Source of the DNA: Chthoniobacterales bacterium
GTDB taxonomy: Bacteria > Verrucomicrobiota > Verrucomicrobiia > Chthoniobacterales > JACTMZ01
Assembly (NCBI GenBank): GCA_040881855.1
Contig: JBBECM010000003.1
Location: forward strand, 1 to 49,137
Direction of reading: 5' to 3'
Length of the DNA stretch: 49,137 nucleotides
The notes under the pieces are model-generated. The model ran no database searches. It saw only the letters and a program-made list of their open reading frames with translations, and was not told the origin of the DNA. The translations under genes were made by a program, and so were the position numbers. Positions within the stretch are counted from its first letter, which is position 1; each line of letters begins with the position of its first letter. Shown here one piece after another: positions 23,302 to 43,394 of this stretch.

Positions 23302-23904
23302 ATGAAAACCCTTCTCCTTGCTCTCCTCACTTTAGTCACTGTTGTTTTTTCTTCGCATCCATCTCTGGCCCAAGAAGTTCCAACCACGTTGACCTTCCCC
23401 TCGGGAGTCGATTGGTCGAGCGCCAACTCGGATCAGATTTCCGAGGCAGTCTTTCAGGCGGCCCAGCAAAATCCGGACAAAGCGCTGGAAATTGCGGTCG
23501 ACGCACTAAATACGGCCAAGGCCACCCAGCGCTTCCCTTCCTTGGCCTCTTACGACGGTAAACAATCTTCCGATCAGAAACTTGATCCGCGGGGCACCCT
23601 CGAGGAATTAGCGCAGCGCATCGGTGATGCGGCCAAACAAGCCAATCCTGCCTTGGCCTCCCAGATCGATACCGCGCTGCTCACGGCGGTCCCCGGCATT
23701 GGAGTGCTCACCGGCACCGATGGCTCAGCGGGCGGTTCTGGCGGCGGGACGGGAACCACAGGCGGCGGCGGTGTGCCTCTCCCGGGTGGTTTTGGCGGTG
23801 GCACCGGCGGTGGTGGTGGTGAGAGTGGCAGTGGCGGCGGTGGTGGCGGTGGCAGTGGTGGCGGTGGTGGCAGTGGCGGCGCGGACAGCGACCCGTCTCC
23901 CTAG
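23302..23904 (+). CDS. Hypothetical exported protein with Gly-rich tail
   Basis: Signal peptide (ending SLA|QE), Ala-rich helical core and a long G/S/T low-complexity C-terminus. Confidence 0.75.
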   Translation: MKTLLLALLTLVTVVFSSHPSLAQEVPTTLTFPSGVDWSSANSDQISEAVFQAAQQNPDKALEIAVDALNTAKATQRFPSLASYDGKQSSDQKLDPRGTLEELAQRIGDAAKQANPALASQIDTALLTAVPGIGVLTGTDGSAGGSGGGTGTTGGGGVPLPGGFGGGTGGGGGESGSGGGGGGGSGGGGGSGGADSDPSP

Positions 23905-23982: not shown

Positions 23983-23993
23983 CAACGGTGCCT

Positions 23994-24269
23994 ATGCAAT
24001 TCCCACCCGCTATGACTCTTGAGGAAAGTCCGCCGCGCGTGAGCAAGCTGGTCGTTTCGTTGGACGACACGAGCGAGTGGGCTCCTTATCTGCGTCGCGC
24101 CGGATTCCACGAGGGCGCCGAAGTGGAAGTCCTTTCCGGTCGTGATCCGGTCATGGTCCGATGCCGGAACGGTTGCGTGGCCTTGCGCCGCTGCATGCTG
24201 GGTTGCGTCCGGGTCTGCGCCCTGCGCGAGGCGGAAGTTCGTGCCCGGCGCGCGGTGCGTGATGAGTGA
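23994..24269 (+). CDS. feoA: FeoA-like protein (Cys-rich)
   Basis: LRRAGFHEGAEVEVL...DPVMV...VALR SH3-like FeoA pattern. Start may be 24012. Confidence 0.7.
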   Translation: MQFPPAMTLEESPPRVSKLVVSLDDTSEWAPYLRRAGFHEGAEVEVLSGRDPVMVRCRNGCVALRRCMLGCVRVCALREAEVRARRAVRDE

Positions 24270-24510
24270 AGCCGTGATTTCGCTGGCCGCGCTGCCGCCC
24301 GGTCAGCGCGGTCGCGTGCAATCCGGCGAGGACGGACATCCCGCCGTTCCGCGATTGCTCGCCCTGGGACTTTTGCCCGGCACGGAGATCACCGTGGTGC
24401 GGGTCGCTCCGCTCGGTGATCCGATCGAGGTGGAGTTCCGCGGCATGCGGCTGAGTCTGCGCAAAGCCGACGCCGCGGCCGTGCGCGTGGAACCGTTTGC
24501 CGCCCGATGA
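24262..24510 (+). CDS. feoA: FeoA
   Basis: RLLALGLLPGTEITVVRVAPLGDPIEV...LSLRKADA. Confidence 0.92.
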   Translation: MSEAVISLAALPPGQRGRVQSGEDGHPAVPRLLALGLLPGTEITVVRVAPLGDPIEVEFRGMRLSLRKADAAAVRVEPFAAR

Positions 24511-26666
24511 GCCGGCCGGATTCCCGTCCCCTGCGCATCGCCTTGGTCGGCAATCCCAACACGGGCAAGACCACGCTCTTCAATCGTCTGACCGGATCGC
24601 ACCAGAAAATCGGCAATTATCCCGGGGTCACGGTGGAGAAAAAATACGGGGCGTGGCATCCCGGCGGCCGCGCCGCCACGCTGGTCGATCTCCCCGGGGC
24701 CTACAGTCTCGCGGCCTCGTCGCCGGACGAACGCGTGGCGCTGGATTTTCTCACCGGACACCTCGCCGGCGAGGCCCGGCCCGACGCGGTCATCTGCGTG
24801 GTCGACGCGTCCAACATCGTGCGGAACCTTTTCCTCGCCTCGCAGGTGGCCGATCTCGGACTGCCCTTGGTCATCGCTCTGAACATGTCCGATGCCGCCG
24901 AGCGGGCCGGCATCCACATCGACGCGGCACTGCTGGCCCGTCACCTCGGGGTGCCCGTGGTGCGGACCGTGGCCACGAGGGGTGAGGGGTCTGGCGCGCT
25001 GGAGAAAGCGGTGCTCCGCGCGGTCGACGGCCGTTTGCTCATGGCGCAGGTGCGGTGGCCCGAGGCGGTGGAACGCGCGGTGCATTACCTTGCCGCCGGT
25101 CTGGAAAAAGAAGGTGTCGCGCCTCTTGAGCCCGGCGAGTTGCGCCGCATTCTCTTCGACCACCGCAGCGCCGTGCTCGAGCGTGCCGGTTGGCCGCCGG
25201 AGGCCGACCCGCAACCGTTGCTCTCCGCCGCGCGCGACATCCTCTCCGCCGCGGGCCTCCAACCGGTCCCGGCCGAGGCGCTTCTGCGTTACGAGCACCT
25301 CGGACACGTCACGGCCGATGCGGTGCGTTTCCCGGAAAAGCGCCACCGGACGCGGACCGAGCGGATCGACGCCGTGCTGACCCACCGCGTGTGGGGTCTG
25401 CTCATTTTTGCGCTCCTCATGTTCCTCGTCTTCCAGTCGATCTACGCGTGGGCCGGCCCGGTGATGGAACTCATCGAGGTCGCCGTGGCGGCGGTGCAGG
25501 AGAGGGTCGCGCCATGGTTGGCCGCATGGCCCGCGGTGCAGAGCCTCGTCGTCGACGGACTCGTCGGCGGGGTTGGCGGTGTTCTCGTTTTCCTCCCGCA
25601 GATTCTCGTCTTGTTCTTCTTCATCGCCCTGCTGGAAGACACCGGTTACATGGCCCGCGGCGCTTTTCTTATGGACAAAATGTTCGGCTGGTGCGGCCTG
25701 AACGGGAAAAGTTTCGTCCCCATGCTCTCGAGCTACGCGTGCGCCGTTCCCGGCATCCTCGCCGCGCGCACCATCGAGGATCCGCGCGCGCGGCTGACTA
25801 CCGTTCTTGTCTCGCCGTTGATGAGTTGCTCGGCCCGTCTGCCAGTCTACACGTTGATGATCGGCGCGTTCATCGAGCCGTCCCACGGTGCCGTGGTCGC
25901 CGGTGCCGTGCTGTTCGCCGCGCATCTCCTCGGACTCGTCGTGGCTGTGCCCGTGGCCTGGAGCCTGAACAAGTTCGTGCTCCGCACTCGCACCCAGCCC
26001 TTTCTTCTCGAAATGCCTCCCTACCGCCGCCCGCGTTTGCGCGACATCCTCTGGCGCCTGTGGGAACGGGCCCGCGAGTTTCTTGTCCGTGCAGGGACGG
26101 TCATCCTCGCCATGACCGTCATCATTTGGGCACTCGTTTATTTCCCGCGTCCGCCGGAAGTGCGCGAGCGGACGGTCGCGGCTTTGTCCGCATCGAACGA
26201 TCCGTCCGCGGTGGAACACGCGGTCGAGGCGGCTTACCTCGAACAAAGCTTCCTCGCGCGGGCCGGTCGCGCGGTGCAACCGGTTTTTGCACCGGCCGGA
26301 TTCGATTGGAAAATCACCGTCGGCGTGCTGGCCAGTTTTCCGGCCCGCGAAGTCATCATCGCCACGCTCGGCACCATCTACGGCATCGGGCGGGAGGTCG
26401 ACGCCGGCTCGGGCGACCTCCGCACCGCGCTGGGGCGGGATCTTTGGACGCATGGCCACCGGGCCGGAAAACCGGTCTTTACCGTTCCGGTCGCGCTGGC
26501 CGTCATGGTCTTCTTCGCCCTCTGCCTGCAGTGCGGCGCCACGGTGGCCGTCATGGCCAAGGAAGCCAACTGGGGCTGGGCCATGTTCGGATTCGTTTAC
26601 ATGACGTTGCTTGCCTGGCTGGGAGCGGTCTTGACCTATCAGCTCGGCACGCGTTGGTTGGGCTGA
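24507..26666 (+). CDS. feoB: Ferrous iron transporter FeoB
   Basis: G1 GNPNTGKT, GNYPGVTVE, G3 DLPG, G4 NMSD, and membrane gate motifs (LEDTGYMAR, MSCSARLPVY). Confidence 0.96.
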   Translation: MSRPDSRPLRIALVGNPNTGKTTLFNRLTGSHQKIGNYPGVTVEKKYGAWHPGGRAATLVDLPGAYSLAASSPDERVALDFLTGHLAGEARPDAVICVVDASNIVRNLFLASQVADLGLPLVIALNMSDAAERAGIHIDAALLARHLGVPVVRTVATRGEGSGALEKAVLRAVDGRLLMAQVRWPEAVERAVHYLAAGLEKEGVAPLEPGELRRILFDHRSAVLERAGWPPEADPQPLLSAARDILSAAGLQPVPAEALLRYEHLGHVTADAVRFPEKRHRTRTERIDAVLTHRVWGLLIFALLMFLVFQSIYAWAGPVMELIEVAVAAVQERVAPWLAAWPAVQSLVVDGLVGGVGGVLVFLPQILVLFFFIALLEDTGYMARGAFLMDKMFGWCGLNGKSFVPMLSSYACAVPGILAARTIEDPRARLTTVLVSPLMSCSARLPVYTLMIGAFIEPSHGAVVAGAVLFAAHLLGLVVAVPVAWSLNKFVLRTRTQPFLLEMPPYRRPRLRDILWRLWERAREFLVRAGTVILAMTVIIWALVYFPRPPEVRERTVAALSASNDPSAVEHAVEAAYLEQSFLARAGRAVQPVFAPAGFDWKITVGVLASFPAREVIIATLGTIYGIGREVDAGSGDLRTALGRDLWTHGHRAGKPVFTVPVALAVMVFFALCLQCGATVAVMAKEANWGWAMFGFVYMTLLAWLGAVLTYQLGTRWLG

Positions 26667-26845
26667 TGAGCACGGTGGAAATCATCCTGGTCGGTCTCGC
26701 GGTCGGAGGCTCAGCCGCTTATCTGGCCCGGCGGGGCTGGCGGCGGTGGATGGGATCCCGCGGTTGTTGCGGCGGGTGTCCGTCCGTCCAGCCCAAAATC
26801 CGGCTCGCCGCCGGGAAGGACCGGGATTCTATTTGCAGGTCATGA
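26666..26845 (+). CDS. FeoB-associated Cys-rich small membrane protein
   Basis: 59 aa: a TM helix followed by GCCGGC; TGATG overlap with feoB. Confidence 0.8.
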   Translation: MSTVEIILVGLAVGGSAAYLARRGWRRWMGSRGCCGGCPSVQPKIRLAAGKDRDSICRS

Positions 26846-27627
26846 GCAACACTGCGGCTTTGCTGCTGCTGGCCGCCCTGGTTCCGGCGGCGGGCTTGGC
26901 CTCGCTGACCGAAACGCAGCGGGCAAAGGCCGAGAGCCTGCCCGCGGTCACGGTGCCCGCACCGGCAGAATTTTTCGGCGCGATCGACAAAGTGTCGCGT
27001 CCGGACTGGGCCGCCTTTTACCGCGACCCCGGACCGACGAGTTTTCCGACGCGCCCGCAGACCGCGTTCAACCTCGGGGCGCTCGTGGCGGACGGCTATA
27101 TCGCGGTCGAAGCGCAGGACGGCCAGCAGGTCAAGAACACGGGCAAGGATATCGTCGCGCTGGCTCGCGCCCTCGGCGTCGGGGAGAACGTGTTGGCGCG
27201 CGGCAAGAGCATCAGCGACTTTGCCGACAAGAATGATTGGTTCGCTTTGCGCGAGGAATTGGAAGCTACGACCAACGAGGTGCGTCGCGCCATGGCCGAC
27301 CAGCGCGACGAAGCTCTGTCCTCGCTCATCCTCGCCGGGGCCTGGATGCGCTCGCTCCAGGCGGGCGGCCGCGCCGCGGAATTGTCCGGCGAACCTTCCG
27401 CCGCTTCCTTGCTCGGACAAAAAGAGCTGATCGCTTATCTTCACGGTCAATTGCGCGACCTCCCGGAGAAAGTCCGCACTGGACCCGTGGTCGAGCGGGT
27501 GGGCAACGCTTTCGCCTCGGTCGGGGAGCTGATGACGGTCGACGGCGGGGGCGCGCCGGATCTCGAGCAGGCCGGGGCCATCGAGGCCGCCTGCGCCGAA
27601 CTCGTGACGCAACTCGGATCCAAATGA
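26842..27627 (+). CDS. Hypothetical exported helical protein (module gene A, copy 1)
   Basis: Signal peptide; VP.P.E.F...DK and LG...ADG..AVEA.D motifs shared with 36622-37428. Confidence 0.8.
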   Translation: MSNTAALLLLAALVPAAGLASLTETQRAKAESLPAVTVPAPAEFFGAIDKVSRPDWAAFYRDPGPTSFPTRPQTAFNLGALVADGYIAVEAQDGQQVKNTGKDIVALARALGVGENVLARGKSISDFADKNDWFALREELEATTNEVRRAMADQRDEALSSLILAGAWMRSLQAGGRAAELSGEPSAASLLGQKELIAYLHGQLRDLPEKVRTGPVVERVGNAFASVGELMTVDGGGAPDLEQAGAIEAACAELVTQLGSK

Positions 27628-28085
27628 CCATGAAACGCGGCCTGAGACTTCTTCTCCTCGGTTTCCTCCTCGCGGGCACGGGCCGGGCGCAAGACCCGGT
27701 GCCTTCTTCCCCGTCCCAGCCCGAATCGGCCCCGTCCTTGCGCGCACGCCTGCTGGAATTCGGAGGAGCGCTGGCCAACGACGGCTTCCGCCTGCGCGAC
27801 GCCTATTGGTCCGGCCGCCTCGAACCCGGCCGCCCGCGCCGCCTCGCGGTCAATCTTTTCGCCGGCAACCAATATTGGTTCTGCGCCGCCGTCGATGCGC
27901 CGGAGGACCGTCCGGCCATCGTGCTCTACGATCCCCAGGGAAAGATCGTCCGCGTCCTGGCGCACGAGAGCCCCGGACTCTCCGCTGCCGGCGTGACAGC
28001 CGCCTTCACCGGGCGCTATGTTGTGCAAATCGAGACGTCCCGCGGTCCGGCGGCGGATTTCTGTCTCCTCTACCTTTTCAAGTAA
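27624..28085 (+). CDS. Hypothetical exported beta-sandwich protein (module gene B, copy 1)
   Basis: Signal peptide; LF.GN.Y.F, YD.QG and G.Y.V motifs shared with 36173-36625. Confidence 0.8.
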   Translation: MTMKRGLRLLLLGFLLAGTGRAQDPVPSSPSQPESAPSLRARLLEFGGALANDGFRLRDAYWSGRLEPGRPRRLAVNLFAGNQYWFCAAVDAPEDRPAIVLYDPQGKIVRVLAHESPGLSAAGVTAAFTGRYVVQIETSRGPAADFCLLYLFK

Positions 28086-28093
28086 CCTGTCCC

Positions 28094-28555
28094 ATGACCA
28101 CGGCCACCACCGAAAAATTGCAGGGCCCCGCCGTGCGCCAGTATTCCGTCTTCCTGACCAACCGCGTCGGCGCACTCATGGAAGTGGTCAAAATGCTCAA
28201 CGCGGCCCGCGTCGTCGTGCTCGCGCTCAGCATCCAGGATTCCTCGGAGACCTCGATCGCGCGGATCATCGTGAGCGATCCCGACCTGCTCGAGGAACTT
28301 TTCGACCGCAACGACATCGCGTTCGGTGTCTGCGAGGTGGTCGTGGCGGAATTGGAGGAAGGCGCCTCCGACCTGCCGCGCCTGCTCGCCGCCTTGCTCG
28401 AGGCGGAAGTGAACATCCTCTTCAGCTACACGCTGCTCGTGCGTCCGCGGGGCCGCCCGCTGGTCGCCATCCACACCGACGACCTCGAGTGCGCCAGCGC
28501 CGTGCTGGAGGGGCGGAACTTCCGCCTGCTGCGGCAAACCGACCTCTCGCGCTGA
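28094..28555 (+). CDS. Tandem ACT-domain protein
   Basis: QYSVFLTNRVGAL...RIIVSDPD and second repeat L..LL..L..AEVNI...Y. Confidence 0.85.
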   Translation: MTTATTEKLQGPAVRQYSVFLTNRVGALMEVVKMLNAARVVVLALSIQDSSETSIARIIVSDPDLLEELFDRNDIAFGVCEVVVAELEEGASDLPRLLAALLEAEVNILFSYTLLVRPRGRPLVAIHTDDLECASAVLEGRNFRLLRQTDLSR

Positions 28556-28561
28556 TCCGCG

Positions 28562-29128
28562 ATGGACTGGAACAGCCGTTACGCGGACGACGACACGCCG
28601 TGGGACAAAGGCGGGGCCCATCCCGTGCTCCGCGACATGCTCACGCACGGTGCCTTGCGCGGCTGCGTCCTCGTGCCCGGTTGCGGCACGGGTCATGACG
28701 TGCGCGAGCTGGCCCGGCTCGGCTTGTCGGTCACGGGGCTCGATATCGCTCCGCTCGCCATCGGTCGTGCCCGTGATCATGACAAAGTGGCGGACGAGAC
28801 CTACGTGCTCGGCGATTTTTTCGCGCCCGCCGCCGGCGCGGTCTTCGACGGCCTGTTCGAGCATACCTGCTTCTGCGCGATCGACCCGGCCCGGCGCGCC
28901 GACTATGTCCGGTCCGCGGCGGCGGCGATCAAGCCGGGCGGACGTCTGCTCGCCGTGTTTTTCACCGATCCGGAGAACGAAGGAGGCGGGCCGCCTTTCG
29001 GCTGCACGCGGGAGGAACTCGACGCCCTTTTCGGGCCAGACTTCCGCCTGCTTAACGAGTCTCGGGAGATACCGACTTTCCCCGAGAGGCACGGACGGGA
29101 GTTGCTCCGGCTCTACGAGCGGGTTTGA
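28562..29128 (+). CDS. Thiopurine/thiol S-methyltransferase-like SAM methyltransferase
   Basis: W..RY....TPWD, VLVPGCGTGHD, EHTCFCAI and GPPF motifs. Confidence 0.85.
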   Translation: MDWNSRYADDDTPWDKGGAHPVLRDMLTHGALRGCVLVPGCGTGHDVRELARLGLSVTGLDIAPLAIGRARDHDKVADETYVLGDFFAPAAGAVFDGLFEHTCFCAIDPARRADYVRSAAAAIKPGGRLLAVFFTDPENEGGGPPFGCTREELDALFGPDFRLLNESREIPTFPERHGRELLRLYERV

Positions 29129-29136
29129 CTGGCTTG

Positions 29137-29925
29137 ATGAAATTCCGCGCGGTCCTCTTCGATCTCGACGACACACTCATCTGGGACGAGCGGCTTTCGC
29201 GTCAGGCCTTGCTGGAGACGGCGGCCGAAGGGGCGGCGCGGACGCGAGCCGACGCGGGGCGACTGGCCGCCGCGGCGAAAAGCGCGTCCGATGAGTTGTG
29301 GTGCGCCCACGCACCGGTCGCCCGCTGCGATGCGCTGGGCATTGTGGCCTTGGAGGGCATGTGGGGCCACTTCCACGGCGAGGAGGATTATTTGCGCCAT
29401 CTCCGCGAGTGGACCCCGCAGTTCCGCGTCGAAATCTGGCGCCGTGCCCTGGCCGCGGAAGGAATCGATGATGACCGGTTGGCCGCGGATCTCGGCGCGC
29501 TCTTCGCCCGCCGGCGCCGCGAATTGCAGGATCCGCTGCCGGGCGCGGAAGTGGTTTTACAACGTTTGCGCTCGGCCGGCGTCCGCCTCGGTTTGCTCAC
29601 CAACGGCGCGGCCAGCCTGCAGCGCGAAAAGATCGAGACGTCCGGGCTCGGCCTGTATTTCGACGCGGCCGTGGTCTCCGGTGAAGTCGGCACCGGCAAG
29701 CCCGAACCGGGGATTTTCCACCACTTGCTGGCCCGCCTCGGTGTTTCGCCTGCCGAAGCGCTCATGGTCGGCAACTCGCTGGCCCGCGATATCGCCGGGG
29801 GCAAACGGGCCGGAGTCGCGACTTGCTGGCTGGCGCTTGAAGGCGAGGAGGAGCCGGTCGGCTTGGTCGAACCGGACCACACGATCTCAGCGCTGGGTGA
29901 ATTGCCCGCGATTGTGGGAGTGTGA
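29137..29925 (+). CDS. HAD-family hydrolase
   Basis: DLDDTL, LTNG, GKP.P.IF and MVGNS...DI.G motifs. Confidence 0.88.
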   Translation: MKFRAVLFDLDDTLIWDERLSRQALLETAAEGAARTRADAGRLAAAAKSASDELWCAHAPVARCDALGIVALEGMWGHFHGEEDYLRHLREWTPQFRVEIWRRALAAEGIDDDRLAADLGALFARRRRELQDPLPGAEVVLQRLRSAGVRLGLLTNGAASLQREKIETSGLGLYFDAAVVSGEVGTGKPEPGIFHHLLARLGVSPAEALMVGNSLARDIAGGKRAGVATCWLALEGEEEPVGLVEPDHTISALGELPAIVGV

Positions 29926-29931
29926 ATGAAT

Positions 29932-30663
29932 TCAGGGAAGCGGGATGGCTTCCTCGTCCAAGGCCAGCACGTCGGGGAATTGCTGACGCGGGATGAATCT
30001 TACCTGCGGCTGCGGCTGCGGCGGGGGATTCAGCGCGAGTGTCGGTTCGATGCGTGTCTGGTAGAGCCCCGCGAGCGAACCTTCCTCCGTTTTGTCGGCG
30101 AAGTCCGCGAGGGCTGGATCGGCCTTGCGCACTTTTTCGAAGAAGAGCGCGTAGTAGGTGCGGCGGGCGGCGCGATGGTCCTCGGGGGTGGGGGCGCGCT
30201 GCGCCATGGCCTGCAATTCCATCAGCTGCGGGTCTTGCCCGAGACGGGCTTTGATCCGCCGCAGTTTGACCCGCATCTTGCGTTCGAGTTCCTTCGGGTC
30301 CTCGATCATCGGCGGCACCTCCGGGATATCCGGCATGGGCGGCATGAACATGTCCGGGCCCCCGAACAGGTCCGCGCCGAAAATGTTTTCCTCGCCGGGC
30401 AAAGCCCCGTCGCCGTCCATCGGTGGCAAGGGCTGCTCGCCGGGCTCCATGGCCGGTTTCTCAAGCACCTCTTCCTCGGCGTCGATGATCAACTCGGCGC
30501 TCGGGGCTTCCGGCGTGGCGCCGCCCGGGGCCGGGGCGGCCGTCTCAGCCGGCGCCTGTTCGGGAATAACCGGAGGCAAAGGCTGCACTTCATCCTGCGC
30601 CGCCGCCGGATGGAACACCGCGAAAGCCGCGAAAGTCAGCGTGATCGCTCGCCGGTTCAGCAT
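29932..30663 (-). CDS. Hypothetical exported protein
   Basis: Signal peptide (AAA|QD), acidic Pro-rich linker and helical C-terminal domain. Confidence 0.7.
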   Translation of the reverse strand: MLNRRAITLTFAAFAVFHPAAAQDEVQPLPPVIPEQAPAETAAPAPGGATPEAPSAELIIDAEEEVLEKPAMEPGEQPLPPMDGDGALPGEENIFGADLFGGPDMFMPPMPDIPEVPPMIEDPKELERKMRVKLRRIKARLGQDPQLMELQAMAQRAPTPEDHRAARRTYYALFFEKVRKADPALADFADKTEEGSLAGLYQTRIEPTLALNPPPQPQPQVRFIPRQQFPDVLALDEEAIPLP

Positions 30664-30728
30664 CTTGCTGCCAAGGCTAGCGCGGGGCTGCTTGAATTGG
30701 AAAGGCTTTCCGGATGAGATCGGACCTC

Positions 30729-31853
30729 ATGCCTGTTTCCGGTTCCGGCCCCGCCCAAGAGATGGTGCTTTTCGACGGCCCCGGTTTCGGCCCTCCGCTT
30801 TCGGGTCTCGCGCCCGCTTCGGTGATCGAGGGCGGGCCGCAGGACTGGCCGCAACTGGAGTCGGCCCTGCAGGTCTTGCGCCGGGACGCGCCCGGCGGTT
30901 TTCTCGGCGGCTGGTTCGACTACGATGGTGGTTTCCGTTTCGGCGTCTTCCGCGAGGACGCGGGTTTGTCCGCGGAGCAGGCGGCCGGAGGAGCTTGGAC
31001 CGGACCGCCGGCTGCTTTCCAGCCGGGCCTCGAGCGTGATCATTGGGTGCGGTTGGTGCGGCGCGCACTCGACTACATTGCGGCGGGCGACATTTACCAA
31101 GTCAATCTCACGCACACGCTCACGGCGCCATGGACCGGGGAGGCGGCCGCCTTTTATCCCCGGCTGCGCGCGGCCAGTCCCGCGCCCTTTTCCTCTTTCC
31201 TCCGCCTCGGCGACACGTCCGTGCTCAGCGCATCGCCGGAATGCTTCCTGAAAATCGACGGACGGCGCATCGTGACCCGGCCGATCAAGGGGACGCGTCC
31301 GCGCGGCGCGGACGACGAAGCCGCCGCCCGTGAATTGCTGGCTTCACCGAAGGAGCGCGCCGAACTGGTCATGATCACCGATCTGGAGCGCAACGACCTC
31401 GGGCAGGTCTGTGCCTACGGTAGTGTGCGCGTCACCGGCCTCTGCGAGTTGGAAACCTTCGCCCAGGTGCACCATCTTGTCTCGACCATCGAGGGGCGCC
31501 TCCGGGCCGACGTGGCTCCCGTGGACGCCGTGCGCGCTTGCTACCCGGGCGGATCGGTCACCGGCGCGCCCAAAAAACGCGCGCGGGAAATCATCGCCGA
31601 ACTCGAACCGTCCGCCCGCGGAATCTACACCGGCGCCCTCGGATTCTTCCACGCCGACGGCCGCGCGGCCTTCAGCATCGCCATCCGCACTTTGGTGGTG
31701 CGTGACGGCCGGGCCACCTACGGGGTGGGGGCGGGCATCGTGGCCGATTCCGACCCGGTCCTTGAATACGAGGAGACCTTGCACAAGGCCGCCGGGCTGA
31801 CCGCGGCGCTCCGCGGGGTCGGGTGGGTTGCCAAAGGTGCGGAGGCGCGCTAA
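30729..31853 (+). CDS. Chorismate-binding enzyme, PabB/anthranilate synthase component I family
   Basis: GDIYQVNL, SASPECF, PIKGT, KERAELVMITDLERNDL, PGGSVTGAPK and IAIRT motifs. Confidence 0.88.
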   Translation: MPVSGSGPAQEMVLFDGPGFGPPLSGLAPASVIEGGPQDWPQLESALQVLRRDAPGGFLGGWFDYDGGFRFGVFREDAGLSAEQAAGGAWTGPPAAFQPGLERDHWVRLVRRALDYIAAGDIYQVNLTHTLTAPWTGEAAAFYPRLRAASPAPFSSFLRLGDTSVLSASPECFLKIDGRRIVTRPIKGTRPRGADDEAAARELLASPKERAELVMITDLERNDLGQVCAYGSVRVTGLCELETFAQVHHLVSTIEGRLRADVAPVDAVRACYPGGSVTGAPKKRAREIIAELEPSARGIYTGALGFFHADGRAAFSIAIRTLVVRDGRATYGVGAGIVADSDPVLEYEETLHKAAGLTAALRGVGWVAKGAEAR

Positions 31854-31863
31854 GCTGGGCTCG

Positions 31864-32703
31864 ATGAGCGGCGAGGAATTCCCTTTGTCCCGGCGGAGAT
31901 TCCTCCGGACCCTGACTCTCGGCGCTTGCACCCTGCCCTTTGCCCGGGCTGTGGCGAACGCAGGGGCGGACTTCGGGCTTCATCCCGACACCCCCGGGGC
32001 GAAACTGGCCAGCGTTCCCCCCGTTGTTCCCGCCTCGATGGGATCGCCCTTCCACTCCGCGGCGATCGGCACACCGCACCTCGCCTTGACCTTCGACGAT
32101 GGACCGCACGGCAAGCTGACACCCAAGTTGCTCGACCTGCTCGGACGGCGCGGCGTCAAAAGCACATTTTATGTCATAGGCCGCAATGTCGAAGCCTACC
32201 CGGACATTGCGCGCCGCATCGTGGCCGAGGGTCACGAGATCGCCAACCATACCTGGACACATCCCCAGCTCTCCCGTTTGTCCGCCTCGCGGGTGGCCGA
32301 CGAATTGCGTCGCACGCATGACAAGGTGCTCGAGGTCACCGGAGTCCGCATGACCAACCTCCGTCCGCCTTACGGTGCTTTCAACAACAGCGTGCGGCGC
32401 GTGGCTTTTGACCGGCATGGTTATGACACTATCATGTGGTCGGTCGATCCGCTGGACTGGAAATACCGCAATTCCTCGCGCGTGACCCGGGAACTGGTCA
32501 AAGGTGCCGCCCCCGGCGCGGTCTTGCTCTGCCACGACATCCATCCCTCGACCATCGCTGCTGTGCCCTCGACCCTCGACCAGCTCCTCGGGCGCGGTTT
32601 CCGCTTTGTCACCGTGGCCGAACTGATGGCCATGGATAGATCGGGGCGGCAGGATTTGAACCTGCGACCTCCTGGTCCCAAACCAGGCGCTCTACCAAGC
32701 TAA
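31864..32703 (+). CDS. Tat-exported polysaccharide deacetylase (CE4/NodB)
   Basis: SRRRFL Tat motif; TFDDGP, NHTWTH, RPPYG, D..DW and LCHD. The 3' end overlaps tRNA-Pro. Confidence 0.9.
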   Translation: MSGEEFPLSRRRFLRTLTLGACTLPFARAVANAGADFGLHPDTPGAKLASVPPVVPASMGSPFHSAAIGTPHLALTFDDGPHGKLTPKLLDLLGRRGVKSTFYVIGRNVEAYPDIARRIVAEGHEIANHTWTHPQLSRLSASRVADELRRTHDKVLEVTGVRMTNLRPPYGAFNNSVRRVAFDRHGYDTIMWSVDPLDWKYRNSSRVTRELVKGAAPGAVLLCHDIHPSTIAAVPSTLDQLLGRGFRFVTVAELMAMDRSGRQDLNLRPPGPKPGALPS

Positions 32704-32714
32704 GCTACGCCCCG
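32641..32714 (-). tRNA. tRNA-Pro(TGG)
   Basis: Cloverleaf: CGGGGCG acceptor, CCTGG-TTTGGGA-CCAGG anticodon arm, GCAGG-TTCAAAT-CCTGC T arm. No encoded CCA. Confidence 0.96.
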
Positions 32715-32796
32715 TCGTCTCCCGCCATAGTTAACGCGGAACGGCCTTTTGTCATTTTAATTTGGCGCCCCGCCTCTGATCCGTCCATTTACAGTC

Positions 32797-33429
32797 ATGC
32801 TCCTACTCGCCGCTTGGCCCGCCGGGGCGGCCCAACCCGTGCTGACTGCCGTGTCCGCGCCGGGGCTTGATCCGGACGGGGCTTGGAGCGACCGCCGGGG
32901 CTGGGCGGGTGTGCCGCCTGCGATGCTCCGCGGGGTCGACGGGACCGTGGCCGAACCGGCCGAAGTGCGCGCCCGGTGGAACGGGTCTGTTCTCTTCGTC
33001 GAATTCCTCTGCCGCGACGAATCCGTGGTCTCGCCCGGCACGCGGGACGGCCTTGATCATTTCAAGCTGGGCGACGTGGTGGAGGTGTTTCTCGGGCGCC
33101 GGGGCCAGCCCGGCTATGTGGAAGTGCATGCCACGCCGGCGGGGCGGAAAACGGTCTATGCTTTTTGTGCTTACCGCCGGGCAGCCCCTCCCGTTGCCGG
33201 CAGCGAGGTCCGTGCCGGGCCGGTCGACGGCGGATGGCGCGCTGTGCTTTCGATTCCCTGGCCCTCACCCGGCGGGAGCCCCGGGGAGGAGGGGTGGGAA
33301 ATTCTGGCCGGCCGTTACGATTACGCGGAGCCGGGCGGAACTCCGGTCTTGTCGTCCTTTCCCGGGCAGACGGGACGCCCTGATTTTCATGCGCGCGGAC
33401 GTTACGCGCGCCTCGAGTTGCAGCCATGA
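32797..33429 (+). CDS. Carbohydrate-binding family 9-like (DOMON-type) exported protein
   Basis: LDPDGAW, ARW....L.V.F.C.D, GDVVEVFL, W.A.L.IPW and PDFH pattern. Confidence 0.65.
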   Translation: MLLLAAWPAGAAQPVLTAVSAPGLDPDGAWSDRRGWAGVPPAMLRGVDGTVAEPAEVRARWNGSVLFVEFLCRDESVVSPGTRDGLDHFKLGDVVEVFLGRRGQPGYVEVHATPAGRKTVYAFCAYRRAAPPVAGSEVRAGPVDGGWRAVLSIPWPSPGGSPGEEGWEILAGRYDYAEPGGTPVLSSFPGQTGRPDFHARGRYARLELQP

Positions 33430-34241
33430 AAAAACATTGGCCCGGTATCGTGCTTACCCTGCTTGCGGGAGGGTGTTCCTCGGTCAGTGTGATCGGGGAA
33501 CAGGAGAATGCGGCGCTCGCTCCGACGGTGCCTCCGCCCGCCGTTTACGTGCGTCTCTTCGAGGTGCCGGCCGGCGCGGAATTCGAAGTGGCCACACCGA
33601 ACAAGGGCGAGGATGTGAGGCGTCGCGTCGGGCAACTCATCGCCGACGGAATTTTCACGCGGTCTTCGCGCTGGATCGCCCCGGGCCGGGTCGCCGGCGA
33701 CGACGAAAAGCTGCCCGCATCGGGTCTGCTCATCGACGGGCGTTTGCTCCGCACCCAACAGGGCAGCCGCGCTCTGCGCCTCGGAATCGGCTTCGGCCTC
33801 GGACGTTCCCACATGGATACCTCCGTGCGCGTCTTTAACCTGGCAAAGTCGGCGGATAAGCCTTGGCTCACCTTCGACACCACCGGTGGCAGCAACATGG
33901 AACCGGGTCTGGCCGCCGCGCTGGTCACCGCGCCGATCTCCGCCCCGGTCGTCGCTCTGCCGGCCGCGGCCAGCATGGCCGGCGGCGCGGTGTCGACGGC
34001 CTCGCGCGGATTCAAGGGGGTCACGCAGGACGGCAAACGGACAGGCCGTGCCATCGCCGCTGCCGTCCACGACCATCTCGCCGTCCGCCAGCTGGTCGAA
34101 CGCAAAGCCTATCCCAAGCGCGGCGGGCGCGTTCCCACGCCGCTCGGCGAGGTCGATTTTCCGCAGATCAGAATGCCGTGGGCGGCCAAGTCCGGTGCCG
34201 CCACCCCGACAGCGGGGCAGGATCCCGGGTCAGGTCGCTGA
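33426..34241 (+). CDS. Lipoprotein, DUF4410-like
   Basis: Lipobox LAGGC and GSRALRLGIGFGLGRS motif. Confidence 0.7.
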   Translation: MKKHWPGIVLTLLAGGCSSVSVIGEQENAALAPTVPPPAVYVRLFEVPAGAEFEVATPNKGEDVRRRVGQLIADGIFTRSSRWIAPGRVAGDDEKLPASGLLIDGRLLRTQQGSRALRLGIGFGLGRSHMDTSVRVFNLAKSADKPWLTFDTTGGSNMEPGLAAALVTAPISAPVVALPAAASMAGGAVSTASRGFKGVTQDGKRTGRAIAAAVHDHLAVRQLVERKAYPKRGGRVPTPLGEVDFPQIRMPWAAKSGAATPTAGQDPGSGR

Positions 34242-35129
34242 CGCCGGGTAAGCGCCGGCGCCCACCAGCCGGGCAATGCTGTCCACCACCCGCGCACGAT
34301 CCTCGCGGTAGGTCACACCGAACCACGCGGCCTCCGTCGGCAAGACGCGCACGGTGGCCGCGCCGTCCGTGATCATCTCCGCCACGGCGGATGGAATGTA
34401 GCACTCCGCTTTTTCGCTGCCGGCATGTTGCGCCAGAAAATTGGTCAGCACTTTCTCCAGCAGCGGGAAAATCCGCGGCGTAAAGCCCCAGAAATTCATC
34501 GAGACAGGCGTGTCCGGCGCGAAAGTGCGTTCGCCCGAAGCGATAGTGCCATCGGGACGGCGGGCCAGGTCGGTGAGCTCCTCGATGCCGTGCAGGAGGC
34601 TGTCCGTCCCCGCCTGGCAAATGCCGCGCGCCACCGTGCCGTGCTCGCTCAATGTCCTGTCGAGACGGTAGCCGGCCATGGCGAATGTCGCGGGCGATGC
34701 GGCCGGATCGACGGACGAAAGGAAGCCGCCGAGTTGCCGGAAAGAATCCGCGCCGTAAAAGTCGTCGGCATTGATCGCGGCGAACGGCGTGGCGATCATG
34801 TCGCGGGTGCACCAGATGGCGTGGGCGGTGCCCCAAGGTTTGCTCCGGCCGGCCGGCGGTGCGAAGCCCGCGGGAAGCTCCCCGAGTTCCTGGAATGCAT
34901 AATCCACGCCGATCCGGCCCTCATAGCGTGCGCCGATCTGCGCGCGGAAATCTTTTTTTATCTCGCGCCGGATGAGGAAGACAACGCGGTCGAAACCGGC
35001 GCGCATCGCATCGTGCACGGAGTAATCGAGGAGAGTTTCCCCGCCCGGTCCGACCGGATCGAGCTGCTTGAGCCCGCCGTAACGGCTGCCCATGCCGGCG
35101 GCGAGGACGAGGAGGGTGGATGCGGACAT
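34230..35129 (-). CDS. Sugar-phosphate nucleotidyltransferase
   Basis: LAAGMGSRYGGLKQ, KPWGTAHA, INADDFYG and WFGVTY motifs. Confidence 0.9.
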   Translation of the reverse strand: MSASTLLVLAAGMGSRYGGLKQLDPVGPGGETLLDYSVHDAMRAGFDRVVFLIRREIKKDFRAQIGARYEGRIGVDYAFQELGELPAGFAPPAGRSKPWGTAHAIWCTRDMIATPFAAINADDFYGADSFRQLGGFLSSVDPAASPATFAMAGYRLDRTLSEHGTVARGICQAGTDSLLHGIEELTDLARRPDGTIASGERTFAPDTPVSMNFWGFTPRIFPLLEKVLTNFLAQHAGSEKAECYIPSAVAEMITDGAATVRVLPTEAAWFGVTYREDRARVVDSIARLVGAGAYPASAT

Positions 35130-35196
35130 GGTCGGTCCTTATATCAGCACCTGCCGCGGCGGTCGATGATCGCGGGAACAAAGCCCTCCGGATGAA

Positions 35197-36165
35197 TCAC
35201 GCCCCGGGCGCGGCTTCCCGGTGCTGCTCGTAGGCACTGATGATCTTTTGCACGAGCGGGTGGCGGACCACGTCCTTGCGGCTCAAGCTGCGGATGGCGA
35301 GACCCTCCACGTCCTGCAGGACTTCGAGCGCCTCGAGCAAACCCGAGCGTTTATGCCTCGGCAAGTCGATCTGCGTGCGGTCGCCGGTGATGACGCATTT
35401 CGATTCGTTGCCCAGACGCGTCAGGAACATGAACATTTGCTCGGCTGTCGTGTTCTGGGCTTCGTCGAGGACGACAAACGACTGGTTGAGGGTGCGTCCC
35501 CGCATGTAGGCCAACGGCGCGATCTCGATGACGCCGCGGTCCATGAATTTCTGGATCTCGTCGGTCTCGAGCATGTCATAAAGCGCGTCGTAAAGCGGGC
35601 GCAGGTAGGGCAGGATTTTCTCCTCGAGTGCGCCGGGCAGGAAACCCAGGGCCTCGCCGGCTTCGACCGCGGGGCGGGTCAAGACGATGCGGCCGACCTG
35701 TTCCTTCTTCAGCGCGGCCACGGCCATGGCCATGGCGAGGTAGGTCTTGCCCGTGCCGGCCGGCCCGACGCCGAAGACGATGTCGTGCTCGCGGATGGCG
35801 CGCACGTAGTCGCGTTGCCCGGGCGTCTTCGGGATGACCGGCGGCTTGCGCGGCGAGCAGACGATGCGCTCGGCGGCGAGTTCGGTGATGCTGGTCGGGG
35901 TTGCGCCTTCCTCGGCGGTTTGCAGGGCGTAGCGGAACTCCTGTTTGCCGATGACCGCGCCCCCGCGGCGGGCCTCGTCGAGTTCGGTGAAGACCTGCGC
36001 GGCGCGGGCGGTCTTGGCTTTGTCACCTTCGATGCGGATCCACCCTTCGCGCGCGGCCACCTGCACGCCGAGGCGCTGTTCCAACTCCCGGAGCAAACGC
36101 TCGTCGTTGTGGTAGAGCGCGGAGGCGGCGCGGGCGTTGTCGAAATGGAGCGTTGTGCTCTCCAT
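35197..36165 (-). CDS. phoH: PhoH-like ATPase
   Basis: GPAGTGKT, RPAVEAGE.LGFLPG, APLAYMRGRT, DEAQN and VVRHPLV motifs. Confidence 0.95.
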   Translation of the reverse strand: MESTTLHFDNARAASALYHNDERLLRELEQRLGVQVAAREGWIRIEGDKAKTARAAQVFTELDEARRGGAVIGKQEFRYALQTAEEGATPTSITELAAERIVCSPRKPPVIPKTPGQRDYVRAIREHDIVFGVGPAGTGKTYLAMAMAVAALKKEQVGRIVLTRPAVEAGEALGFLPGALEEKILPYLRPLYDALYDMLETDEIQKFMDRGVIEIAPLAYMRGRTLNQSFVVLDEAQNTTAEQMFMFLTRLGNESKCVITGDRTQIDLPRHKRSGLLEALEVLQDVEGLAIRSLSRKDVVRHPLVQKIISAYEQHREAAPGA

Positions 36166-36172
36166 CAAGCGA

Positions 36173-36625
36173 TTATTTCCGCTGGAACCCGTAGACCAGC
36201 GCCCAGCCGGTGCGTTCTTCCGGCGAGGAGGTGATTTCGACGATGACGTTGTAGGTTCCCGTCGAGCGGGGCTTGATTTCGGCGTAGGCGAAGCGCCCCC
36301 GCTGCCACGATTTGCTTTCCGCCAGGTTGCCTTGTGCGTCGTAGATGTTGACGCGCAAGCTGGCGTTGTCCACGTCGGTGGCGAGGAAGAACATGTAGCT
36401 GTTGCCGCGGAAAAGCTGGGCGGCCACGCGCTTTTTGTCGCCCGCGCCGAGGTCGCCTCCCCAGGCGTCCTCGCGGATGATCCAGCCGCGCTCGGCGTAG
36501 GGATTGGCCGCTTCGTAGGCGAACGAAAGCGCGTCGTCCACCAACGCCCGGGCCGCGGGCGCGGCGAGGAGAAGCGCGAGGAGGGCGGCGGCGGGACGGC
36601 GGAAAGCGGGAGCGAAGAGTTTCAT
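36173..36625 (-). CDS. Hypothetical exported beta-sandwich protein (module gene B, copy 2)
   Basis: Signal peptide (ARA|LV); paralogue of 27624-28085; ATGA-coupled to the upstream gene. Confidence 0.8.
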   Translation of the reverse strand: MKLFAPAFRRPAAALLALLLAAPAARALVDDALSFAYEAANPYAERGWIIREDAWGGDLGAGDKKRVAAQLFRGNSYMFFLATDVDNASLRVNIYDAQGNLAESKSWQRGRFAYAEIKPRSTGTYNVIVEITSSPEERTGWALVYGFQRK

Positions 36626-37428
36626 GGTCGGCCGGCTTTGGCGCGGATCAAATCCACCATCTGCACCGAGAGGTTGTTGATTTGAGCCACCGTCTCGGGG
36701 GTGATGCCGTCGGGCGGGGATTTTTTGATGAGCGGACCGATGCGGCCGAGGGAGCGGCGGATTTCGCCGACCAGCGGCTGGCCGCGCAGGCGCGGGCTCA
36801 TCCGGTCGAGCTGGCCGCTGAAATAGTCGACCAGCAGCGGCTGGTAGAGGAGTTCGGCCCGGTCGCGGGAGTATTTTTCTTTCACGATGGAGGTGAGGAC
36901 CTCGGTGCCGCGCAACCAGCCGCCGAGGCTGACCAATTGGGCCAGCTGTTCGTCGTTCAATTCGATCATCGCTTTGTTGACATCCTGCAGCGCGCCGTCG
37001 AACTCGCGGCGCACCGCGTTCCATTGGCGTGCGTCGGCTTTCTCGATGATGCTGTTGCTGCGGGCCACCACGGATTTGCGCACGTTGATCGCCTCGGCCA
37101 GGGTGAGGACGTTGCGGCCGATTTCCTTCACGCGCTCGCTGTCCTCGGCTTCCACCGCGACAAAACCGTCGGCGATGACCGTGCCGAGCAGAAGGGCGAC
37201 CTGCGCGCGGTTAGGGCTCGCCGGGTAGCTTTTTTCCGGTCCGAGCTGGGCGCGCCAGTTCGGGTTGCCGAGCTTGTCGAGGACGGAGAAAATTTCGCTG
37301 GGCACCGGGACAACGACGTTTTCCACGGTGTCGGCCGGGAATTGCCCCAAGTCGATCGACTTGTCCGGCTTCTGGGCCAGAGCGGGGGAAAGACCGAGCA
37401 GCAGGACGAAAAGAAGGCGTGGAATCAC
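36622..37428 (-). CDS. Hypothetical exported helical protein (module gene A, copy 2)
   Basis: Inferred GTG start gives signal peptide MIPRLLFVLLLGLSPALA|QK; paralogue of 26842-27627. Confidence 0.8.
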   Translation of the reverse strand: MIPRLLFVLLLGLSPALAQKPDKSIDLGQFPADTVENVVVPVPSEIFSVLDKLGNPNWRAQLGPEKSYPASPNRAQVALLLGTVIADGFVAVEAEDSERVKEIGRNVLTLAEAINVRKSVVARSNSIIEKADARQWNAVRREFDGALQDVNKAMIELNDEQLAQLVSLGGWLRGTEVLTSIVKEKYSRDRAELLYQPLLVDYFSGQLDRMSPRLRGQPLVGEIRRSLGRIGPLIKKSPPDGITPETVAQINNLSVQMVDLIRAKAGRP

Positions 37429-37483: not shown

Positions 37484-38500
37484 GTGGAACATGTACCCAG
37501 CGCCGCGCGCTTGCCGGAAATCATCCGGGCAATGTCCGGTTGCCGTGTTCTTGTCGCGGGCGACCTCATGCTCGACGAGTTCATCTGGGGCAAAGTCTCG
37601 CGCATTTCCCCGGAGGCCCCCGTGCCGGTCGTGGCCGTCGACCGGGAGACTTTTTATCCGGGCGGCGCGGCCAACGTGGCCCGCAACCTCCAGGAGTTCA
37701 CGACGCAGACATCCGTGCTCGGTCTGGCCGGCGAGGATGCGGCCGGCGTCCGCCTGCGCGACCTGCTCGCCGCCGGCGGCATCGGGACCGACGGCGTGGT
37801 GACCCGCGCGGGTCCGACCACGGTGAAGACGCGTATCATCGCGCGCACGCAGCAAGTGGTGCGGGTCGATCGCGAGTTGGCCGAACCCGCGGGCCCGGCC
37901 CAACGCAAATCCCTGCTCGCCGCATTGGAGGCCGCCCTGCCGGAAACGGATGGCGTCATCCTCGAGGACTACGGCAAGGGATTCTTCGACGAGGAGATGT
38001 CGGCGGCGATCATTGACCGCGCGCGCGCCGCGGGTTGCGTGGTGGCCGTCGATCCCAATCCCGGCAACCCGCTCGCCTGGCGCGGCGCGACCGTCATCAA
38101 GCCGAACCGGCACGAGGCCTTCGCCGCAGCCGGCCTCCCGTGGAGCGAACCGTCCGCGCCGCCGCTCGAGGACAAACAACTCCTCCGGGTCGGCGAATCG
38201 CTCCTCGCCAAGTGGGATGCCGACCAACTGCTCGTCACTTTGAGCGAACTCGGCATGATGCTTTTCACCAAGGACGGCCGGCGCCATCACACCCCGACGC
38301 GCGCGCGCGAAGTCTTCGACGTGTCCGGCGCGGGCGACACGGCCATTGCCCTTTACACCCTGGCCCTCTGCGCGGGAGCCACGCCGGTCGAGGCTGCCGA
38401 AATCGCCAACCACGCCAGCGGCGTCGTGGTGGGCAAGCTCGGCACGGCCACGCTCACCCCGGACGAACTTCTCGCCAGTTTCCAAAATCATGCCCGCTGA
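37484..38500 (+). CDS. rfaE1: D-glycero-beta-D-manno-heptose-7-phosphate kinase (stand-alone HldE/RfaE domain I)
   Basis: GDLMLDEF, RISPEAPVPV, GGAANVA, DYGKG and DVSGAGDT. GTG start inferred. Confidence 0.9.
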   Translation: MEHVPSAARLPEIIRAMSGCRVLVAGDLMLDEFIWGKVSRISPEAPVPVVAVDRETFYPGGAANVARNLQEFTTQTSVLGLAGEDAAGVRLRDLLAAGGIGTDGVVTRAGPTTVKTRIIARTQQVVRVDRELAEPAGPAQRKSLLAALEAALPETDGVILEDYGKGFFDEEMSAAIIDRARAAGCVVAVDPNPGNPLAWRGATVIKPNRHEAFAAAGLPWSEPSAPPLEDKQLLRVGESLLAKWDADQLLVTLSELGMMLFTKDGRRHHTPTRAREVFDVSGAGDTAIALYTLALCAGATPVEAAEIANHASGVVVGKLGTATLTPDELLASFQNHAR

Positions 38501-41451: not shown

Positions 41452-41552
41452 GCCGGGCGCATGGAGCAGATTTCACCCTTGGTCGACCTCTCGGGATTTC
41501 TGTTCACTGCTTGATTCTGCCGAGGCCCGCACTATGAGTGGGGGCTTCACTC

Positions 41553-43394
41553 ATGCCTGACGAAAAGTCCTCTGCCTTGCGCCGCGCCCTGGCCGCACCC
41601 GGCCACCTGTTCCTCCGCTGGTGGCGGGAGGCGACGGGTCCGCTGCTGAGCAACGATCATCCCCTTTTGGTCGACGCGCTCCTGCGTCGCCTCTTGGTCT
41701 TGTCGCCGGTGCTCCTTCTCATGGTGGCCCTCCTTGGCGCCCTCGGGTTTTATCTTTTCGTCGGCTGGCGGGCGCGGGATCTCACGGCCAAGGCGCTGGC
41801 CAGTGTGGAAGCGGGCAGTTTGCCCTTCGCCCGCCGGCAAATTGCCGCGGCGGCGAACTTGCGGCCGGATGATCCGGTCGTACAGCGCGCCCGGGCGGTG
41901 ATCGAAAGCCGGGTCGGCAACCCGGACGCGGTGGCCATGTGGCAGGAAATGGCCGACACCGGGGTTCTCACCGATGACGAGGTCGACGCCCGTGCGGAGA
42001 TTATGACAGCGCGCGGCGACGACGGGCAATTTGCCGCCGCACTGGCCGCCTTGGAGGCGCAGGGTGGGGCCGGCCGCGCGGCCGAATTGCGCTCCTTCCG
42101 CAGTCTGCGCGGCGGCGATCTGGAGCAAGCCATCGCCCAAGCACGCACCGCTGCCACCTTGTCCGACGAACCCCGCCTGCGCCTGCGGCTCATCCAGCTG
42201 CTGGCCGTCCGGCATGGTCTCTTCCTCTCCGATCGTGCCAAGGCCGGGCCGCGTGATCTGGCCGCCGCGGCGGAAATGATCGCTCTGATCGACGGTCTGG
42301 CCGGCACGCCGTCGGGCGACCAGGCGTTGGCCATCGGCCTGGAGGCCCCCTATTTTCCGGCGCGCAAGAAAGCCGAGTGGGCCGAAGCCGCTTGGCGCAA
42401 TCCGATCGATGCCAACCCTGCGCTCCTCCTCGCCGCCGAATTCCTCGCCGTCTCCGGGGCAGAAAGTGCCGAATCGCTTCGCGACAAACTGCAGGGCCTC
42501 TATGTCGGCGCGCCTTTGCCGCGCCGCGCCGCCTTCGCCCAGTGGATGCTGCGACGCGGCATGAGCGAGCAGGTGCTCGTCACGGTGTCGGCCAAGAACG
42601 CGGCGGAGGACGAAGCGATGTTCCGTCTCCGCGCATCGGCTCTCGGTTCGCTCGGCCGCTGGGAGGAAGTCTTGCGCTTGGCCGAGACGCCGGACGAGGC
42701 GGCAAGCAACACGCCAAGCAACACGACGGCCGGGATACCCGAGTCGGCGCGCCTTCTGGTCAGATCCCGTGCGGCGCGCGAGCTCGGACGCCCGGGGGAA
42801 GCCGACGAATTGATCCGCACGGCGCTGCGGACCTCGGCGGCCGAAGGCCGTTTCGGTCAAGCCGTCGAGTTGGCCGACCTGCAGGGGCTGCGCGCCCTGG
42901 CCGACGAAGCCATCGTCGATCTGTGCGGCGAGGCGGACAAGGCCGATGGCGCCTTCGGCCTGGCCCGCGACCGGTTCGGGCGGCGCGGGCAATTCGCCAC
43001 GCTCGATCAGGCCCACGCCGCGGCGCGCCAGTCCTCGCCGGACGCGAAGTCCGTGCGGGTTTACGAGCGCTACCGGGAAATTCTCGAGGGAAAAAACCTG
43101 GACCTTTCCGTCACGGCCGAAGCCGTGGCTGCTGCTCCGACCGATGTCGGCACGCGCTTCAACCACGCGCTGGCCTTGCTCAAAGCGGGGCAGGCGACGG
43201 AGGCACTTGCGGTCTTCGACGACCTTGACGTCATCGTCGATCAATTGCCCCCCGGCCTGCGTGCCGTGAGCGCCGCGGTGCTTCATGCCTCCGGCGACCT
43301 GAACTCGCTTGTGCTGGTCCGAGATATCGACCCCGACCTGCTCACCCCCGAGGAATACGCCCTCATTGCCCCGCTGCGCCATACGAGGCCCTGA
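41553..43394 (+). CDS. Membrane-anchored TPR-like helical protein
   Basis: One TM segment near the N-terminus, then Ala-rich helical repeats (RFNHALALLKAGQATEALAVF). Confidence 0.7.
   Translation: MPDEKSSALRRALAAPGHLFLRWWREATGPLLSNDHPLLVDALLRRLLVLSPVLLLMVALLGALGFYLFVGWRARDLTAKALASVEAGSLPFARRQIAAAANLRPDDPVVQRARAVIESRVGNPDAVAMWQEMADTGVLTDDEVDARAEIMTARGDDGQFAAALAALEAQGGAGRAAELRSFRSLRGGDLEQAIAQARTAATLSDEPRLRLRLIQLLAVRHGLFLSDRAKAGPRDLAAAAEMIALIDGLAGTPSGDQALAIGLEAPYFPARKKAEWAEAAWRNPIDANPALLLAAEFLAVSGAESAESLRDKLQGLYVGAPLPRRAAFAQWMLRRGMSEQVLVTVSAKNAAEDEAMFRLRASALGSLGRWEEVLRLAETPDEAASNTPSNTTAGIPESARLLVRSRAARELGRPGEADELIRTALRTSAAEGRFGQAVELADLQGLRALADEAIVDLCGEADKADGAFGLARDRFGRRGQFATLDQAHAAARQSSPDAKSVRVYERYREILEGKNLDLSVTAEAVAAAPTDVGTRFNHALALLKAGQATEALAVFDDLDVIVDQLPPGLRAVSAAVLHASGDLNSLVLVRDIDPDLLTPEEYALIAPLRHTRP

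Follow-up and report, generated by a model that had tools for sequence, protein, structure and literature searches.

An exported protein pair of Chthoniobacterales is a candidate periplasmic partner of a TerB-headed ABCG-type transporter

Analysis of a 49,137-nucleotide stretch of DNA from a Chthoniobacterales bacterium (contig JBBECM010000003.1 of assembly GCA_040881855.1; hereafter the window) revealed two diverged copies of a gene pair, A1–B1 and A2–B2, encoding exported proteins of unnamed families. We consider it reasonably likely that A, with or without B, is the periplasmic partner of a TerB-headed ABCG-type transporter encoded elsewhere in the same genome, on contig C8. The parts of this proposal differ in strength: homology and gene order make the partnership of A with the transporter highly probable, and analogy puts the odds of a lipid or envelope export step a little above even. 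The evidence is computational and consists of homology, linkage in two phyla, co-occurrence, natural gene fusions and a modelled A–B interface. The joining of the A–B pair, a Bacteroidota operon and the transporter is new here, and a literature search on A, B or the transporter system, with subscription papers mostly outside its reach, found no paper.

A1 (26842..27627, plus strand) encodes an all-helical protein of 261 residues and overlaps B1 (27624..28085, plus strand), for which an alternative ATG start is possible at 27630. A2 (36622..37428, minus strand), encoding an all-helical protein of 268 residues, begins with a GTG codon at 37428 and is followed by B2 (36173..36625, minus strand). 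The reading frames are open over these coordinates, and in both pairs the two genes are coupled by an ATGA overlap. The A proteins are 34% identical over 206 residues (E 5e-41) and the B proteins 30% over 105 residues (E 2e-13). All four N-termini contain a hydrophobic stretch resembling a signal peptide, as judged by reading of the sequence with no predictor. The original prediction, made from the window alone, had described two ATGA-coupled pairs of diverged paralogues with the same gene order and signal peptides on all four proteins, and its reading frames, overlaps and quoted motifs are all present.

The prediction had also recognised neither family and proposed that the system is undescribed, and the database searches support it on both counts. 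A1, B1, A2 and B2 have no Pfam match at E<=0.1 and no NCBIfam match above cut-off, and their Bacteroidota relatives are likewise without a family in either collection; scattered weak matches occur among B members, for example to CHU_C in 8 of 41. Searches of PDB sequences with A, B and their relatives returned designed helical repeats and filamin-type noise and nothing else, and a protein atlas search returned unnamed Verrucomicrobiota clusters only. The named relatives of the window pair are Chthoniobacterales proteins whose annotation ends at 'hypothetical protein'.

In Bacteroidota, relatives of the pair stand beside a gene for an ATP-binding cassette (ABC) transporter. Metagenome contigs scanned with one short motif yielded at least 119 Bacteroidota-type loci, 80 of them with flanks; B was not among the criteria used for selection. 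The A-type product, a lipoprotein of roughly 300 residues found in clusters named Bacteroidia, Ohtaekwangia, Chryseolinea and Fluviicola, aligns with A, profile to profile, at 96.8% (E 2.4e-10, 222 columns), and the small secreted B-type protein of roughly 145 residues aligns with B at 97.1% (E 5.4e-11, 94 columns). Among the matches listed, 61 of 66 A-type proteins carry a lipobox-like Cys by a loose pattern, the B-type gene comes next after A in 52 of the 65 loci with room for it, and a gene with ABC_tran and ABC2_membrane domains adjoins the pair in 41 of 80 loci, always on the same strand, 26 times downstream and 15 times upstream. Bacteroidota-type B has Cys residues conserved in 36, 34, 28 and 36 of 39 proteins, which Verrucomicrobiota B lacks; these three to four positions suggest disulfides.

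The genome of the window encodes an orthologue of the Bacteroidota transporter (E 1e-72 over 532 residues) at C8:25876-29481 (locus L390), with no A or B gene adjoining. Its single chain of about 1200 residues opens with a TerB-like head (E 5e-5), there being about 480 cytoplasmic residues ahead of the ATPase, and continues with ABC_tran (481-631) and ABC2_membrane (803-998), so that the ATPase is N-terminal to the ABC-2 domain. The Pfam matches of the transporter are ABC_tran, ABC2_membrane and ABC2_membrane_7, and its annotation stops at 'ATP-binding cassette domain-containing protein'. The Walker A, Walker B and H-loop motifs are intact. Six transmembrane hydropathy peaks are evident in this protein and its order-level relatives, with an outer loop of roughly 190 residues, at about 985-1170 of the chain, before the last. 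By its likeness to ABCG proteins, the C8 product may act as a dimer in the putative export of a lipid or other hydrophobic compound. In transporters of the Akkermansia type (L406-L410), SGGE in the ABC signature is replaced by SDGE, and HQP in the H-loop by HRP. A second, shorter ABCG-like fusion of ATPase and membrane domain, about 560 residues long and without the TerB-like head, is encoded at C47:13830-15620.

The distribution of the transporter follows that of A closely. Across 401 sampled Verrucomicrobiota genomes A was detected in 44 (43 strongly) and B in 18 (14 strongly); a weak A match in G163 (E 8.6e-4) and four weak B matches (E about 5e-4) were treated as chance. The full-length transporter (E<=1.6e-146) is found in exactly the 43 genomes with a strong A. 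Ten further genomes contain a shorter, divergent transporter, and in all ten a divergent A lies directly upstream, as had been predicted beforehand, so that 53 of 53 transporter-positive genomes have A. This divergent form of A, which we call Kiritimatiellia-type (one genome is named Kiritimatiellae), aligns at 97.5% with the profile of Bacteroidota A; B went undetected in these ten genomes. A broad profile of all three A types, run on 229 genomes, gave 32 positives, all of them transporter-positive. Within Chthoniobacterales, A is present in 149 of 151 genomes, with 2 to 6 matches per genome; it is missing only from two genomes of 0.9 Mb, from which the transporter is missing too. Moreover, A, B and a transporter-like gene lie in a row in genome G081, and in G473 A is followed by a small gene and then a related transporter. 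Tandem arrangements also occur, with two transporter genes after one A in G454 (L411) and two A genes before one transporter in G540 (L416).

The predicted structure of A is all-helical (predicted local distance difference test, pLDDT, 90) and consists of two four-helix bundles. Structure searches gave no match to the whole protein and matches to single bundles only, which does not imply that the fold is new; the bundle spanning residues 50-140 matches known structures with Z 9.5-10 over 82-89 residues, a common arrangement. Cytochrome b562 and SMBP are among these matches (Z about 9.5). With regard to a likeness to HPt domains or cytochrome b562, A has no conserved phospho-accepting or haem-binding His.

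B is predicted to be an N-terminal helix followed by a jelly-roll β-sandwich (pLDDT 95). The best fold matches have Z values of 11.1 (root-mean-square deviation 3.1, 108 residues aligned), 10.9 (3.0, 109) and 10.4 (2.1, 95), with a Foldseek E of 2e-5, and the structures resembled are the C-terminal domain of Tk-SP (9ues and 3afg), ColH (3jqw), p24 GOLD and PliG. The resemblance to a PPC-like sandwich suspected from the sequence is thus evident in the model, which matches PPC, collagen-binding and GOLD domains. Identity to these domains is nevertheless 10-15%, and B differs from them in standing alone, in its N-terminal helix and in carrying conserved residues that, in the model, are turned towards A. 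PPC itself (PF04151) gave no match for B1 or B2 and matched 3 of 41 members, with a best E of 0.003. Nor is B attached to a secreted peptidase: B proteins are stand-alone chains of 150 residues, and the fusions seen are to A only.

Modelling of A2 with B2 as a heterodimer gave scores of 0.91, 0.88 and 0.91, against 0.13 for the best control; the runs have at least 88% of contacts in common, with a partner pLDDT of at least 89. Of 157 solved pairs, 116 reach the mark used for heterodimers, as do 2 of 215 mismatched pairs. The model supports binding of B2 to A2. Eight of the 14 most conserved positions of B lie in the modelled interface with A, and on the A side the interface residues Glu24 and Lys31 are kept in 41 of 41 and 40 of 41 B-paired A proteins and in 0 of 11 solo A3 proteins (see below). 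Natural fusions of A1 to B1, joined by hydrophilic linkers, were found four times among the best 150 representatives, and two of the four belong to clusters that have 9 and 6 members. The model of the cognate pair and these fusions agree with the exported A–B complex of the original prediction.

The same genome, which is 78% complete, contains a third A paralogue, A3 (contig C10:5852-6688), that has no B beside it, and no third B was found in the genome. In A3 a conserved acidic N-terminal extension replaces the B-binding segment, and the protein is the orthologue of the single Akkermansia copy. In a tree of A, A1 and solo A3 form separate, supported, order-wide clades (support 95 and 99), in keeping with the predicted age of the paralogues, and the A2 clade has weaker support (65); the tree is a quick search with long branches and was not used for the direction of transfer. 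B directly follows A1 in 30 of 31 loci and A2 in 78 of 80, both exceptions lying at contig ends. In the Akkermansia-named genus A is present in all 28 genomes and B in none of the 28. The pairing was predicted to be obligate; because of solo A3 and the Akkermansia A without B, we conclude instead that it is clade-specific.

Separation of pairs is seen as well as fusion. Family f15 (L424-L426; G488, G500, G515) and genome G174 have one B copy apart from any A, and in G048 and G379 (L202, L207) additional A copies, beside which no B was detected, adjoin universal-stress-protein genes. Five A2-type proteins (P0271, P0281, P0282, P0286 and P0290) carry unannotated N-terminal extensions of 130-180 residues. 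The A3 protein of Akkermansia is identical to ACD05585.1 and corresponds to Amuc_1767 by gene order (GT2, uncharacterised SpI protein, small protein, SNF2-like). Amuc_1767 appears as transcribed in an RNA-seq table (PMC6538878) and the position of Amuc_1765 is fixed by a supplement row of PMC13436333; the portions consulted of an outer-membrane proteome paper (PMC4960237), one supplement included, contain nothing on the Akkermansia A.

These observations can be combined in the following scheme. A would be the periplasmic partner of the dedicated ABCG/White-type transporter encoded at C8, and B an accessory subunit that would bind A through conserved loops, being kept with A1, A2 and the Bacteroidota forms and absent from solo A3 and the Kiritimatiellia-type loci. 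The genes form one operon in Bacteroidota and Kiritimatiellia; they have dispersed in Chthoniobacterales, where duplication of A(+B) would leave one transporter facing up to three modules (A1B1, A2B2 and A3). A may dock on the outer loop of the transporter, with B modulating or extending it, and ATP may drive the extrusion of a lipid-like envelope compound that A(+B) would receive and carry on. We infer envelope-lipid export from the behaviour of ABCG exporters, from the relays of the Lpt, Mla and Lol type and from the position of A2–B2 beside heptose/Kdo genes; by this analogy the substrate is probably an envelope lipid.

The ABCG/White half-transporters include the eukaryotic ABCG2 and ABCG5/8. 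The transporter described here resembles them in that the ATPase precedes a six-helix ABC-2 domain whose last helix is preceded by an outer loop, and differs in its TerB-like head, in the length of that loop (about 190 residues) and in having periplasmic partners of new families. LptC/LptA, MlaC/MlaD and LolA serve as periplasmic relays for ABC systems of the diderm envelope. The likeness to these lies in an inner-membrane ABC protein with exported lipoprotein or soluble partners, but neither sequence nor fold matches: A is built of two four-helix bundles, and B has the jelly-roll fold. A bacterial parallel is Rv1747 of Mycobacterium tuberculosis, an FHA-regulated ABC exporter (PMC3138270, PMC5549992, PMC3908365). 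To judge from the openings of those abstracts, Rv1747 too is a bacterial ABC protein made as one chain, with a regulatory head at its N-terminus, and is thought to export; it carries a pair of FHA domains, and its operon includes a kinase. Pfam gave no FHA match in the C8 transporter at E<=0.01, and the abstract openings describe no A or B partner of Rv1747. A bolder extension of our proposal, which we regard as doubtful, would make the system a trans-periplasmic export pathway of its own, apart from Lpt, Mla and Lol and common to Bacteroidota and Verrucomicrobiota, with A a carrier of new helical fold, A1B1, A2B2 and A3 interchangeable adaptors that provide one pump with several cargoes or destinations, and Akkermansia the minimal two-gene version.

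Several points weigh against the partnership and the export role. Across 20 loci from the window's class, the 1.5 kb around the transporter contains no A or B gene, so the link here is indirect, and contact between A and the transporter is presumed from homology, linkage and co-occurrence. The genomes are kin, and the co-occurrence comes down to a few independent events at the level of lineages; the broad A profile covered transporter-negative genomes in the subsample of 229 of the 401, the negatives being mostly unlisted. The Kiritimatiellia-type A has a weak match to the window A profile (E 0.0045); what links it to the family is the Bacteroidota profile. The Bacteroidota-type loci, picked by that one motif, are counted among the matches listed, and 39 of the 80 have no transporter within 2.5 kb, many on short contigs. 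In A3 the interface shows no enrichment of lost residues over other positions (4 of 7 versus 17 of 46; p 0.42).

FtsEX and BceAB couple ABC folds to signalling. A(+B) might accordingly sense a periplasmic ligand or the state of the envelope, with the ABCG-like protein relaying this through an ATP-driven change of shape to the TerB-like head. The size of the cytoplasmic head would suit such a role, as would several A paralogues per transporter, which would fit several inputs, and the genes conserved downstream have regulatory or nucleotide-related functions (ACT pair, phoH, 7TM-HD hydrolase). The intact Walker A, Walker B and H-loop motifs and the ordinary ABC-2 domain of the membrane part nevertheless speak for a transporter, and no kinase or output gene is kept beside the pairs. 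The SiaB and SiaC families were unmatched in five Verrucomicrobiota genomes, but no control matched either. We judge signalling unlikely.

Somewhat less likely still is a stand-alone periplasmic complex, a chaperone or envelope scaffold, which would have come to occur with the transporter, and to share operons with it, through common ancestry and co-regulation and not through contact. The separation of transporter and A/B in all 20 loci of the window's class and the relatedness of the genomes are as such a complex would have them, and so are the widely varying neighbours of A1–B1 and A3. Set against this are the linkage in two Bacteroidota gene orders, in 10 of 10 Kiritimatiellia-type genomes and in G081 and G473, together with the joint patchy presence of A and transporter across families and their joint absence from reduced genomes.

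Upstream of A1 is a plus-strand series, feoA-feoA-feoB-small Cys-rich ORF (open reading frame; 23988..26845, the last at 26666-26845), in which overlapping stop and start codons couple feoB to the small ORF and the small ORF to A1. The coupling of A1 to an Fe(II) uptake operon that the original prediction described is therefore present locally, where feoB precedes A1 in 17 of 17 loci of the same genus, but a functional tie to iron uptake does not follow: feoA and feoB are absent from 20 of 20 A1 loci of about 11 kb each in other families, where the upstream genes vary (thiG, enolase, purS, hrpB, LysM). We conclude that this is a local, genus-confined gene order and not part of the conserved system. 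EfeO and imelysin (Peptidase_M75) have the metal motif HxxE; A is exported as EfeO/imelysin-like proteins are and, modelled as two four-helix bundles, may share their overall arrangement, with neither among the 50 fold-match rows listed; it differs in having no conserved His for such a motif and no conserved link to iron genes. That A1–B1 binds iron in the periplasm and passes it to FeoB, with an acidic motif of A as metal site, is most improbable and was rejected: four-helix bundles often bind metal and one Asp of the motif is nearly invariant across lineages, but the Glu and second Asp are lost in A3, A has no conserved Cys and, in either alignment, no His conserved at 60% or more, and the match to EfeO is poor (TM-score 0.26, E 0.74).

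The remaining neighbours vary in constancy. The third gene, after A1–B1, encodes an ACT-domain-pair protein (PF19571; 28094..28555, plus strand) and is a constant neighbour, present in 16 of 20 loci from other families; its role in the system is a candidate one only. A second such gene is found at C83:16631-16999. Downstream of A2–B2, as predicted, lies phoH (PF02562; 35197..36165, minus strand), which follows the pair in 70 of 74 loci and probably shares its promoter rather than contributing a subunit. Divergent from A2 is a gene that we take to be hldE-like and to encode a heptose kinase (37532..38500, plus strand), a name that goes back to the original prediction, its relatives matching PfkB; this arrangement recurs in 63 of 75 loci, and the envelope context that had been proposed is thereby upheld. 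Elsewhere in the window, all on the plus strand, are genes for an exported 200-residue protein with a long Gly/Ser tail and a weak DUF3426 match, upstream of feoA (23302-23904), for a DUF4410 protein (33426-34241) and for a 618-residue membrane-anchored protein with a weak TPR match (41538-43394).

To our knowledge, most of the ABCG-type transporters that have been described are eukaryotic, and they work without periplasmic partners. If the proposed partnership is true, an ABCG transporter with exported partners of its own in two phyla would be an unrecognised envelope pathway, and two unannotated families, of which A alone comprises 1284 clusters at 50% identity (profile search, E<=0.001), would acquire a concrete job. 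The cultured gut commensal Akkermansia muciniphila has one A gene and one transporter, and in it the proposal would be testable.

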